From the NCBI RefSeq assembly GCF_041248615.1, contig NZ_CP158426.1: a stretch of DNA of 64,000 nucleotides; one strand, written 5' to 3'. The notes beneath the pieces are model-generated. The model saw nothing but the letters and a program-made list of their open reading frames with translations. It made no database searches and was not told the origin of the DNA. Shown piece by piece: positions 60,689 through 64,000 of this stretch (the first letter of the stretch is position 1; each line of letters opens with the position of its first letter). A program made the position numbers and the translations under genes. This stretch comes from Escherichia coli (GTDB lineage: Bacteria > Pseudomonadota > Gammaproteobacteria > Enterobacterales > Enterobacteriaceae).

Positions 60689-62668
60689 ATGGGCAGACCG
60701 TTAAAAACTTTATTCAAACGTGAGCATAGTGAAGAAATCAGTAACCCGAGCGATAACCGCGCGTTTTCGCAGGTGGCGGAAGTCTATTTGTCACGCCGCC
60801 GTCTGTTACAGGCAGGCACGGTCGCCGGTGCCGCGGCAGCGTTCCCATTTCTGCTGAAACAGGAAAACGCGCTGGCGAAAGTGGTCTCCAAAGCAAGCGG
60901 TAACCTCGGCAAAGCGACGACGCTCGGTTTCACCAGCCTGCCGGTTTCCACGGAAGATACCGTTATCGTGCCGGAAGGATACATCGCGAAGCCCTTCTAC
61001 AAATGGGGCGACGCCACCGGGATTGCCGGAAATCTGCCGGTTTTTAAAACCGACGGTAGCAACACCACGGAAGAACAGGCGGCGCAGGCCGGGATGCACC
61101 ACGACGGCATGGCGTGGTTTAGCCTGCCGCAGGGCGGGAACAGCTCCGATCACGGCCTGCTTGCCATAAACCATGAATACATCGATAACGGTCTACTGTT
61201 TAAAGATGGCGATGCCAACTGGAGCGCCGATAAAGCTCTTAAAGGCCAGAACGCGATGGGCGTGTCGGTCATTGAAGTAAAAAAAGTGCCCCTGGGCTGG
61301 GAAGTGGTGCGCCCGTCATCGTTCGCACGCCGCATCACCGTTAACACGCCGATGAAAATCACCGGTCCGGCGCTGCATAACCCACTGATGCAAACAGTTG
61401 ACGATCCGAAAGGCGAAATCATTCTCGGCACCATGCAGAACTGTGCCAACGGATTTACGCCGTGGGGCACCTATCTGACGTGTGAAGAGAACTGGTCCGA
61501 TATTTTCGTAAAAAAAGCAGAGATGAACCCGCTGGAAAAACGTTACGGTATCAGCGGGAGCGACGACTCTTACCGCTGGAACGAAGTGGATAAAAGGTTC
61601 AGCGTCGACGCCACGCCGAACGAGCCGAACCGCTTCGGCTGGGTGGTGGAAATCGATCCATACGATCCGCATTCAGTGCCGCGCAAGCACACCGCGCTTG
61701 GTCGCATCAAACACGAAGGCGCAGCGGTGACAATTGCCCCGGATAACCGCGTTGTGGTCTATATGGGCGATGACCAGAAATTCGAATACATATATAAATT
61801 TGTCTCGGAAGGAAAATTCAACCCGCAGGATCGCAAAGCCAACATGCACCTGCTGGAAAAAGGCACTCTGTACGTGGCGAAATTTAACGACGACGGCAAA
61901 GGCGAGTGGCTACCGCTGGTGTTCGGACAAAATGGGCTCGACGCCAGTAAAGGGTTTGAAAACCAGGGCGACCTGTTGATTAAAACCCGTCTGGCGGCAG
62001 ACGCCGTGGGGGCCACTAAAATGGACCGCCCGGAGTGGATTGCGGTCGATCCATATCACGCCGGCAGCGTTTACTGCACGCTCACCAACAACAGCGATCG
62101 CGGTAAGGAAGGAAAAGCGCCAGTGGATGCGGCCAACCCGCGCGCCAAAAACGTTTACGGCCACATCATTCACTGGTTGGAGCATAACGGTGACCCGACC
62201 GCGCTGCAGTTTGCCTGGGATATTCTTGTGATGGGCGGTCGCACCGATACAGACAAACTGGAAACCAAAGGCAGCATGAAGGGTGCGGAATTCGGCAGCG
62301 CCGATGGCCTGAGCTTTGATCACCGCGGCGTGCTATGGATCCAGACCGACGTGTCGTCATCAACCATAAATATTAAAGATTACAAAGGCATGGGCAACAA
62401 CCAGATGGTGGCGACGATTCCCGGTACCAATGAGTTCCGCCGCTTCCTGACCGGCCCGCGCGGCTGCGAAATCACCGGCATCGCGTTCACTCCGGATAAC
62501 CGGACGCTGTTTATTAACATCCAGCACCCTGGCGAGCCAAGCGAAGGGCTTAGCGATCCGCAGCATCCGACGGCAGTATCAAGCTGGCCTGACGGCGATA
62601 AGGCTGGTCGTCCGCGCTCCTCAACTGTCGTTATCGTAAAAGCCGACGGCGGCATAATCGGCACCTGA
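60689..62668 (+). CDS. phoX: PhoX-family (DUF839-type) Tat-exported phosphatase
   Basis: Twin-arginine SRRRLLQAG; motifs NHEY, CANGFTPWGTYLTCEEN, FTPDNRTLFINIQHPGE. Confidence 0.65.
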   Translation: MGRPLKTLFKREHSEEISNPSDNRAFSQVAEVYLSRRRLLQAGTVAGAAAAFPFLLKQENALAKVVSKASGNLGKATTLGFTSLPVSTEDTVIVPEGYIAKPFYKWGDATGIAGNLPVFKTDGSNTTEEQAAQAGMHHDGMAWFSLPQGGNSSDHGLLAINHEYIDNGLLFKDGDANWSADKALKGQNAMGVSVIEVKKVPLGWEVVRPSSFARRITVNTPMKITGPALHNPLMQTVDDPKGEIILGTMQNCANGFTPWGTYLTCEENWSDIFVKKAEMNPLEKRYGISGSDDSYRWNEVDKRFSVDATPNEPNRFGWVVEIDPYDPHSVPRKHTALGRIKHEGAAVTIAPDNRVVVYMGDDQKFEYIYKFVSEGKFNPQDRKANMHLLEKGTLYVAKFNDDGKGEWLPLVFGQNGLDASKGFENQGDLLIKTRLAADAVGATKMDRPEWIAVDPYHAGSVYCTLTNNSDRGKEGKAPVDAANPRAKNVYGHIIHWLEHNGDPTALQFAWDILVMGGRTDTDKLETKGSMKGAEFGSADGLSFDHRGVLWIQTDVSSSTINIKDYKGMGNNQMVATIPGTNEFRRFLTGPRGCEITGIAFTPDNRTLFINIQHPGEPSEGLSDPQHPTAVSSWPDGDKAGRPRSSTVVIVKADGGIIGT

Positions 62669-62680
62669 TTCTGTTTCATC

Positions 62681-62714
62681 CGTCATTAAAAACGCAGGCG
62701 CGGTTAGCCTGTGT
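62681..62714 (+). terminator. Candidate rho-independent terminator after phoX
   Basis: Imperfect GC-rich hairpin acgcaggc...gcctgtgt followed by TTTTT. Confidence 0.45.
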
Positions 62715-62718
62715 TTTT

Positions 62719-63319
62719 ATGGTAAAGTCCTGTCAGTCCGCGCGCTGGCTTCCTTCAACGCTTTGTCGTAATTTTTGTCAGTCTGCTCGTAGTCTGGAAT
62801 GCCCGGAATTCCTCAACGCTATGCCACTGTTCAGGCGCGGTGTGATGAGAGTGGCGTCGCTGGGTTATGCCTTTCCGGGCACGATTCTGGCGATTGGTTT
62901 TCTGACTCCCTAAATGACCGCTGGCTGGCGGAACTACTGGATTACAGGGGGTTACCTTTAATGTCTGTCGGTGTCCTGTTGGTGATTTGCTGTACGATGC
63001 GATTTCAGGCAATAGCCATCGGCGCACTTGATGTCCGGCTGGGACGTATACCAGAGTCACTGGAACAAGCCTCACGTCTGCTGGGAGAAAATGGTACAGG
63101 AACTTTTGTTCGGGTTCACTTTCCTGTGTTGCTCTGGTGAGCAGTGCCCTGCTGGTTTTCACTGATGCGATGAAAGAACTGCCAGTAACACTTCTTTATG
63201 CTGAAGCAGCCCGTGGAACTTTTGAAGAAGGGGCCATCTCTGCTTTAATGATTGTTCTTGCAGGGACATTTCCGGTTATTTTGTTTGTTCCAGCTGAAAG
63301 ACTGAAATCAGAGGATTGA
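62719..63319 (+). pseudogene. afuB: Iron(III) ABC transporter permease (AfuB/FbpB-like), 3' portion in several frames
   Basis: Membrane-protein fragments in three ORFs 62719-63319. Confidence 0.5.
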
Positions 63320-63990
63320 TTATGTCTGAAGAAACAGCTTTATGTATTAATGATGTCCATGTTGTTTATCCCAATAGCCCATATCCTGTATTGCGGGGCG
63401 GGGGGTATGTCAGTCTGTAAAGGTGAACTGGCATGTCTGCTTGGTACATCAGGTTGTGGAAAAACAACAGTACTACGTGCTGTAGCTGGTTTTGAGCGCC
63501 TGAACAAGGGGAAATTTTTGTATCACAGCATTGTGTGGCCAGCGCAGATATGCATTTTCCGCCGGAGAAATGTCATGTCGGTATAGTCTTTCAGGAATAT
63601 GCGCTCTTTCCCCACCTTACAGTTTCACAAAACGTGGCTTTGGTCTGAGAAGACTGCCGAGAGATGTACAGCGAACCAGAGTTACAGAACTGTTGAAAAT
63701 GGTGGATTTATTCCACTATTCAGACAGCTATCCTCATGAACTTTCAGGAGGTCAGCAGCAACGTATTGCCCTTGCAAGGTCACTGGTTCCAAATCCAGAT
63801 ATCCTGTTGCTAGATGAACCATTTTCCAGCTTGGATAAAAAACAAGGGTAGGACTGAGCCGTGAAGTTCGTGATATTTTGCATGAGGCAGGGCAGACAGC
63901 ACTTTTAGTCACTTACAGTGAACACGAAGCATATTTGATGGGGGCTCGTATTAGATATGTTAAAAACGGACAATATTGGGAAGGGTAACC
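63320..63990 (+). pseudogene. afuC: Iron(III) ABC transporter ATPase (AfuC/FbpC-like), multiple frameshifts
   Basis: Walker A GTSGCGKTT and signature [13 protein letters not shown] in different frames. Confidence 0.6.
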
Positions 63991-64000
63991 TTGCCAGCAG

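Follow-up and report, generated by a model that had tools for sequence, protein, structure and literature searches.

Why does an Escherichia coli chromosome keep an intact phosphatase gene beside transporter genes that have fallen apart? This question is raised by positions 60689-64000 of a 64,000-nucleotide stretch of E. coli DNA (NCBI RefSeq contig NZ_CP158426.1), which we call the window and whose numbering we use throughout, extended for features past 64000. The window matches positions 2403672-2467671 of the E. coli NRZ14408 chromosome (NZ_LT599825.1), with 100% identity over 24.5 kb. The RefSeq annotation produced by PGAP lists exactly three features here. The only intact gene (60689-62668) is annotated as 'PhoX family protein' (WP_000533456.1). 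It is followed by two pseudogenes of an ATP-binding cassette (ABC) transporter, a frameshifted 'iron ABC transporter permease' that is missing its N-terminus (62765-63319) and a frameshifted 'ABC transporter ATP-binding protein' (63322-63988). An earlier note, made from the letters alone, had described the locus as a decaying, afuBC-like iron-uptake operon beside a retained phosphatase gene.

With a probability of roughly 85%, we read the locus as the junction of two unrelated, horizontally acquired pieces in an island riddled with insertion sequences (IS), in which PhoX is intact and the transporter is dead. The first piece (about 60571-62770) would be a self-contained PhoX cassette with a Pho-box-like promoter, the gene of a phosphomonoesterase exported by the twin-arginine translocation (Tat) system, and its own terminator. 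It would stem from a Cronobacter-like lineage, also circulate on IncF plasmids and be kept by purifying selection, its predicted product most likely being a phosphate-starvation-induced periplasmic phosphatase. The second piece (62765-63988) is dead and hitch-hikes with PhoX; it probably comes from an Fbp-type Fe3+ ABC importer, of which it holds the ATPase gene and the final third of the permease gene. The binding-protein gene and permease codons 1-359 are missing, and what is left has later gained seven frameshifts, a 39-bp deletion, an H-loop change and a drift from GC to AT. In NRZ14408, a full IS1414 inserted downstream and, paired with an old IS256-type end on the upstream side, made the segment a 7.3-kb compound transposon, which transposed once.

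The PhoX gene and its flanks

The PhoX-family alkaline phosphatase gene lies on the plus strand (60689-62668) and encodes 659 amino acids in one open reading frame (ORF), as the earlier note had claimed. The similarity to the family extends from end to end. The protein matches positions 2-515 of the 515 positions of the PhoX profile (Pfam: PF05787) with an E-value of 1e-165 and 553.2 bits (cut-off 24), and it aligns to the solved PhoX of Pseudomonas fluorescens (PDB: 3ZWU) across residues 70-658 with an E-value of 2e-167. Its QNCANG motif aligns to chain residues 177-182 of 3ZWU, where we take Cys179 to be a thiolate ligand of Fe3+; the equivalent residue here is Cys252 (codon 61442-61444). 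PhoX enzymes carry a cofactor of two Fe3+, three Ca2+ and an oxo bridge, with a thiolate ligand, and are exported in the folded state by the Tat system (PMC4223295). Out of 300 alignment columns that are at least 98% conserved among 110 homologs, the protein keeps 299, the sole loss being a tyrosine to phenylalanine change at position 377. This conservation is consistent with the predicted phosphomonoesterase activity.

The twin-arginine signal proposed earlier is also present. The Tat signal peptide (60689-60877, plus strand, residues 1-63) consists of a 34-residue n-region, S35 followed by RRR, a hydrophobic core and ALA at 61-63, after which the peptide is probably cleaved. The Tat motif itself is SRRRLLQ (residues 35-41), with the three arginine codons at 60794-60802. 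On the N-terminus, the NCBIfam model TIGR01409 scores 17.8, above its cut-off of 16.7, and the Pfam TAT_signal model scores 16.7, below its cut-off of 22.7. The motif is invariant across 32 diverse homologs. Moreover, the 34 residues that precede the RR motif are conserved among homologs down to 64% identity, and therefore the annotated ATG is the real start of PhoX.

This pre-Tat extension (60689-60790, residues 1-34) follows the pattern M[GS][RK]PL..K..H..[ED][IV]SN.S.N..FS.[VI] in the PhoX subfamily and lies outside the Pfam coverage. A profile of it, searched against 1.84 billion representatives, found only 39 short PhoX-like N-terminal fragments and no other family. The extension may be a docking site for a chaperone or proofreading factor. 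The enterobacterial subfamily shares full-length homology, the QNCANG cysteine and an N-terminal twin-arginine signal with the P. fluorescens PhoX (PDB: 3ZWU, 4A9V, 4ALF), and differs from it in having a conserved 34-residue stretch ahead of the Tat motif. A second difference is the location of the gene here, which is carried by a mobile mosaic island and by a transposon; its host, E. coli, has PhoA as its textbook phosphatase. A literature search on PhoX in E. coli islands or in avian pathogenic E. coli (APEC) found nothing relevant.

The gene sits in a module of promoter region, gene and terminator (60571-62770, plus strand), a block that is common to a Cronobacter-like contig and to E. coli IncF plasmids. 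About 90 bp on the 5' side of PhoX are conserved in every context that we compared. This part contains a Pho-box-like sequence, TTGTTATATTTCCGTAAC (60602-60619, plus strand), which is a candidate PhoB site with 13 of 18 matches to the consensus CTGTCATAWAWCTGTCAY; the Cronobacter-like copy has 14 of 18. In the whole window, on both strands, 21 sites score at least 13 and only one scores at least 14. The Pho-box-like site is therefore only suggestive of control of PhoX by PhoB. A candidate -10 element, TAGACT (60630-60635, plus strand), lies about 10 bp on its 3' side, and a Shine-Dalgarno sequence with a good match, AAAGGAAA (60676-60683, plus strand), lies ahead of the start. A scan for sigma-70 patterns performed no better than on shuffled sequences.

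Downstream of the gene, a hairpin in the form of an intrinsic terminator (62683-62722) is built from an A-tract, a 12-bp stem and a T-tract (a U-tract in RNA), and is bidirectional in form; the pattern scan picked it up on the minus strand. Its folding energy is -19.2 kcal/mol (z = -4.24), and none of 200 shuffles folds as well, which supports the candidate terminator of the earlier note. Both the plasmid copies and the Cronobacter-like one conserve the hairpin, with a G-C pair where the window has a G-U wobble.

The transporter remnant and its junction with PhoX

We measured the lesions of the transporter genes against the intact genes of E. coli CX21 (WP_032669183/185/186). The permease pseudogene (62765-63319, plus strand), delimited by tblastn with the CX21 protein, is a 3' remnant that covers codons 360-562 of a fused ABC permease of 562 codons. 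It carries 7-bp deletions that disrupt the frame after positions 62814, 62915 and 63130, and an in-frame deletion of 39 bp (13 codons) after 63196, by which LLRPVNFETLATL is removed. The ATPase pseudogene (63322-63988, plus strand) is a full-length ABC ATPase of the short type with 222 codons, delimited by tblastn with CX21 and with a further relative (L005 in our set) and by Pfam ABC_tran matches on its fragments. One base is inserted at about 63399 and single bases are lost after 63502, 63638 and 63839. In total, the remnant has seven frameshifts and falls into nine reading segments, which agrees with the six or more frames counted earlier. All three frame-disrupting deletions of the permease are exactly 7 bp long, versus only single-base indels in the adjoining ATPase.

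The Walker A (GTSGCGKTT, 63443-63469) and signature (LSGGQQQR, 63741-63764) motifs are still readable, as had been pointed out, and so is Walker B (ILLLDEP, 63801-63821). The H-loop histidine has become tyrosine (63914-63916). What is left amounts neither to a complete two-domain permease (~560 amino acids) in one frame nor to an unbroken ATPase with these four motifs. Furthermore, tblastn with the CX21 binding protein gave no match at E <= 1e-3 across the window and the next 18 kb, and the 5' part of the permease gene was not found in the same range. The transporter remnant is unable to function. We also considered whether the ATPase once extended beyond 63988, with a decayed regulatory domain there; the intact relatives rule this out, being 223-227 amino acids long and ending at the homologous stop.

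The lower GC content that had been noted for the downstream genes is real, with 0.467 for the remnant (62770-63989) against 0.559 for PhoX and 0.557 for the homologous stretch of CX21. Changes specific to the window lineage run from GC to AT in 92 cases and from AT to GC in 29, an excess that fits mutational decay.

Might the breaks instead be sequencing or assembly errors at homopolymers, with a permease and an ATPase that are truly intact? Two of the seven frameshifts do lie in or beside homopolymers (a G-run at about 63397-63407 and an A-run at about 63836-63842). Against this, the region 60500-64000 is present at >=99.9% identity in 53 of 5,426 complete genomes; these 53 come from differing laboratories, hosts and countries, and strain SFE8 is identical base for base. 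A diverged island variant (98.9%), as found in E. coli Ecol_AZ159, shows the same junction and, for the first lesions, the same segment breaks. The lesions are not sequencing errors, because they recur in the 53 genomes, the first of them are shared by the variant and they include multi-base deletions; three losses of 7 bp and one of 39 bp are unlike homopolymer slips. Moreover, the truncation of the permease at codon 360 and the missing binding-protein gene would not be explained by such errors. We regard this explanation as practically negligible.

The AZ159-type variant (L014, 4921-7454) is found in about 31 genomes, several of them avian pathogenic among those listed. Here the remnant has been cut again at the equivalent of window position 63205: the permease remnant stops after its first 436 bp, and genes for an outer-membrane protein and a phosphoethanolamine transferase come next. 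PhoX is intact, with three amino acid differences.

The two pieces meet at 62765-62770, where the 3' flank of PhoX is joined to about codon 360 of the fused permease gene. The homology to the permease begins at 62765 by tblastn. Past 62770, the Cronobacter-like copy and two IncF plasmid copies stay homologous to each other, whereas the window switches to permease coding sequence. Island-type PhoX (>=99%) occurs in 94 records and the remnant in 91 genomes, and the junction is old relative to the diversification of the island. Because PhoX has other neighbours elsewhere and the junction lies within the permease gene, the adjacency of PhoX and transporter is the product of a secondary rearrangement, not an operon, and has no functional meaning. 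The earlier note was thus right about decaying ABC genes of the iron type beside an intact PhoX. It was wrong in placing a whole operon here, as all that the locus has of it is the ATPase gene and codons 360-562 of the permease, which were fused to PhoX by rearrangement.

To which transporter family the remnant belongs has to be read from its relatives, the closest found having only ~67-71% DNA identity. In their intact operon, a binding protein (345 amino acids), a fused two-domain permease (562 amino acids) and a short ATPase (223-227 amino acids) are encoded. The closest intact operons found are L004 and that of E. coli CX21 (L013). Amino acid identities to the CX21 operon in the aligned blocks are 59-85% for the permease and 75% for the best ATPase block. 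The remnant aligns to residues 360-562 of the CX21 permease and to the whole 227-residue ATPase in the same permease-ATPase order. It differs in that 64% of the permease gene is missing, as is the binding-protein gene, and in its seven frameshifts and its DNA identity of only ~70%.

Within 'E. coli' genomes, intact relatives of the remnant are found only in the CX21 operon (L013, 3896-7299). The segment that holds them is flanked by ISKpn26, ISKpn3 and ISSen4 and interrupts dha genes, with a partial dhaK on its far side. It looks foreign in origin.

The binding protein of the L004 and CX21 operons matches the 'putative iron binding protein' 1Y9U, which we take to be Bordetella FbpA, with an E-value of 1e-149 and about three quarters of the aligned residues identical, as read off the alignment. 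Further matches are the FbpA of Mannheimia (PDB: 1Q35, ~1e-81), FutA and other Fe3+ binding proteins. Among its 30 PDB matches with E <= 0.01, 28 are described as iron-binding and none is of the AfuA type. The ATPase of the relatives consists of the nucleotide-binding domain only, and aligns to FbpC (PDB: 3FVQ) at residues ~9-217 only. In the NCBIfam model for ferric ABC ATPases (NF008513, cut-off 496), an intact relative scores 191.5 and the window fragments 38 and 66 bits, and no component reaches the curated cut-off of any NCBIfam equivalog model.

The remnant shares with the classical AfuABC and FbpABC systems the broad importer class, the fused two-domain permease and the nucleotide-binding domain of the ATPase. 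The classical FbpC and AfuC have ~350 amino acids and a regulatory domain at the C-terminus, whereas in the remnant and its relatives the ATPase has 222-227 amino acids, with nothing beyond the nucleotide-binding domain. AfuABC was for a long time annotated as an iron transporter but imports hexose and heptose phosphates (PMC4546632). Since the binding protein of the relatives matches the iron-binding 1Y9U and the ATPase is short, we classify the remnant on sequence grounds as Fbp-type, and the label 'afuBC-like' of the earlier note should be dropped. Iron is then a reasonable prediction for the substrate of the dead transporter.

The function of AfuABC opens another explanation, in which the remnant would be an AfuBC-type sugar-phosphate or phosphonate transporter that once formed a phosphate-scavenging cluster with PhoX and a fragment of ugpB located ~2 kb downstream. 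PhoX and ugpB are classic themes of the Pho regulon, and the best NCBIfam matches of the ATPase and the permease are models of 2-aminoethylphosphonate transporters. The scores of these models, however, are far under their curated cut-offs (e.g. 257 versus 458 and 102 versus 593), and the binding protein of the relatives is of the Fbp type. In addition, PhoX does not stand beside the transporter in the Cronobacter-like contig or on the plasmids, the junction within the permease gene is abrupt, and the ugpB fragment lies apart from the remnant, outside the transposon described below. We consider a former phosphate-scavenging cluster very improbable. More generally, a functional pairing of PhoX with the transporter, be it through the iron need of PhoX or through sugar phosphates, was ruled out by the other contexts of PhoX, the intragenic junction and the Fbp-type binding protein.

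Relatives, distribution and selection of PhoX

In blastn searches, the PhoX block of the window is 92.7% identical to the IncF plasmid copy L003 (over 60571-62769), 93.6% identical to the IncF plasmid copy L002 (over 60605-62768) and 91.8% identical to the Cronobacter-like contig L012 (over 60589-62764). L012 has a chromosomal-type context, and its cluster representative is named Cronobacter universalis. IncF plasmids with the block come from E. coli and E. albertii (e.g. CP099214.1 and CP099215.1). All these copies encode 659 amino acids and share the same ~2.2-kb block, upstream region and terminator included. Their neighbours differ. In L012, genes of the inositol-catabolism type lie on one side of PhoX and a metNIQ-like transporter on the other, and on the plasmids PhoX is found with a phytase-like esterase or with cytochrome b562 and an autotransporter. 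Unlike in these copies, PhoX is fused to the transporter remnant only in the chromosomal islands.

The ratio of non-synonymous to synonymous substitution rates (dN/dS, Nei-Gojobori) is 0.06-0.13 when PhoX is compared with the Cronobacter-like copy, the plasmid copies and the copy of the second island variant. The two island variants differ by 10 synonymous and three non-synonymous changes. By this signature, PhoX is under purifying selection.

An intact gene could also be a passenger that has not yet decayed, silent or useless in E. coli, whose integrity reflects recent acquisition and not selection. This would agree with the rarity of PhoX in E. coli, with the ~180 plasmid records that hold only a 112-bp scar of the gene, with the weakened Pho-box-like site of the window copy and with the presence of PhoA. 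It has to be set against a low dN/dS in every comparison (the one within the island being based on only 13 differences), the 299 conserved positions and the state of the remnant, which has seven frameshifts versus none in PhoX, though the two are joined at the same junction in every island copy. We judge a passenger unlikely and prefer a PhoX that would be maintained by selection.

Several points weigh against the reading of a retained, phosphate-regulated PhoX beside a dead iron importer. The Pho-box-like site matches at only 13 of 18 positions, such sites turn up about once per 6 kb, and one half-site is weakened here relative to the other PhoX copies (CTGT to CCGT). PhoX is found in less than 2% of the complete E. 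coli genomes; this rarity, together with the ~180 records in which only the scar is left, clearly marks the gene as dispensable. The iron substrate is predicted from the binding protein of relatives whose DNA identity is only ~70%. Lastly, the excess of GC-to-AT changes could come from a donor of lower GC content and not from decay.

The whole PhoX gene is kept on only nine plasmids, and the scar-bearing records belong to PLSDB and are mostly from Escherichia. The scar corresponds to window positions 61551-61662 with 92% identity (e.g. L017, 3501-3612). On the one IncF plasmid examined, its neighbours are an autotransporter gene on one side and a RelE/Phd toxin-antitoxin pair on the other. It seems that the scar-bearing plasmid backbone has repeatedly lost PhoX.

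The transposon and its island

Both pieces are the cargo of a pseudo-compound transposon of 7275 bp (58360-65634, of which 58360-64000 lies in the window), with an IS256-family end remnant, IS remnants, PhoX, the transporter remnant and an IS1414. The left end is a 63-bp remnant (58360-58422) of the terminal inverted repeat of a truncated IS256-family element. It is 86% identical to the right end of IS1414, with 38 of 45 terminal bases in common, compared with 26 of 45 between the two ends of IS1414 itself. The right end is the outer end of a complete IS1414 (64320-65634, beyond the window) with the target duplication CAACTGTC.

A second, 100% identical copy of this stretch (7276 bp, 58359-65634) lies at 562433-569708 of NZ_LT599825.1, between the rrnD 5S gene and yhdZ. 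The 8-bp sequence ATCAAATC is found on both sides of this insertion and only once in other strains, where the site is empty. The transposon has thus transposed once with PhoX and the dead transporter genes as its cargo, and NRZ14408 has two phoX copies. The rrnD-yhdZ junction was found in one of the 5,426 genomes, and the IS1414 insertion that made the transposon is strain-specific too.

To the left of the transposon, another complete IS1414 of the IS256 family (57028-58342, plus strand) has the 8-bp target duplication CAACAACA and a Transposase_mut match of 2.7e-119. The IS1414 transposase is intact with 402 amino acids. Both flanking IS1414 copies are absent in SFE8, which has an empty site there. 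In another frame of the transposase gene, an intact ORF of 38 amino acids (57815-57931, plus strand) encodes astA, the EAST1 heat-stable enterotoxin. IS1414 occupies about 13 places in NRZ14408.

The element resembles compound transposons of the IS256 family such as Tn4001 in its inverted ends, intact transposase of the Mutator type, 8-bp target duplication and cargo between the ends. It differs from them in three ways. A 63-bp remnant of a truncated, related IS is all there is of one end, hence pseudo-compound; the cargo is a phosphatase gene with pseudogenes and not a resistance gene; and the element was found in a single strain. The IS1414-driven transposon is a new detail, but an ordinary IS256-family event.

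Just outside the transposon lie two ugpB fragments (UgpB residues 4-45 and 197-328), cut by an IS66 remnant and with Pho-box-like sites upstream (L001, 15958-16630, about window 65930-66450).

The host region is a large mosaic island beside ynjA, which contains iucABCD/iutA, sitABCD, sodC, an extra amiC, iha and remnants of an integrative conjugative element (ICE), as well as dozens of IS elements and IS fragments. The iucABC, iutA, sitABCD (16340-19810) and iha (50824-52911) genes are intact in this strain, and iucD of the aerobactin operon (8867-10200) is annotated as frameshifted. The extra amiC, which encodes a Tat-dependent amidase, and two pseudogenised ICE genes (TIGR03756/TIGR03757) were found at 40940-42199 and 53845-55211, which suggests that the island is partly derived from a degraded ICE. 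Further downstream, the island contains plasmid-like modules with ProQ/FinO, PerC, SSB and cytochrome b562. Rfam matches at gathering level were seen for the Hfq-binding island small RNAs isrN (42764-42906, plus strand) and STnc490 (21150-21271, plus strand) and for a group II intron domain (26179-26265, minus strand) with a pseudogene of ltrA next to it; the scan of 58000-64000 gave no match.

The mobility of the cassette through IS1414 transposition, IncF plasmids and islands allows a more far-reaching explanation, in which PhoX would be a selected and mobilised fitness gene. It would provide extraintestinal or poultry-associated E. coli with a zinc-independent, Fe/Ca-dependent periplasmic phosphatase to obtain phosphate under zinc limitation by the host, and the pre-Tat extension could dock a chaperone for cofactor insertion or export. 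Residence in an island packed with iron-uptake systems would fit this role of an Fe/Ca-dependent enzyme. We hold it to be quite unlikely as a whole.

On our preferred reading, the joined PhoX and transporter genes are a case of ordinary genome decay of a known kind, already flagged by the standard annotation. The automated annotation of the island was confirmed as correct, with little meaning beyond bookkeeping. For the transporter families, the case indicates that 'afu' or 'iron' labels on ABC remnants can be trusted only with the binding protein of an intact relative at hand. The transposon shows cleanly how a compound transposon arises anew when an IS inserts by an old IS end, and how it then moves a metabolic gene within a genome. 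Should PhoX turn out to be a fitness factor of extraintestinal pathogenic E. coli (ExPEC) or of APEC, both the cassette and its mobility would become of some interest to epidemiology.

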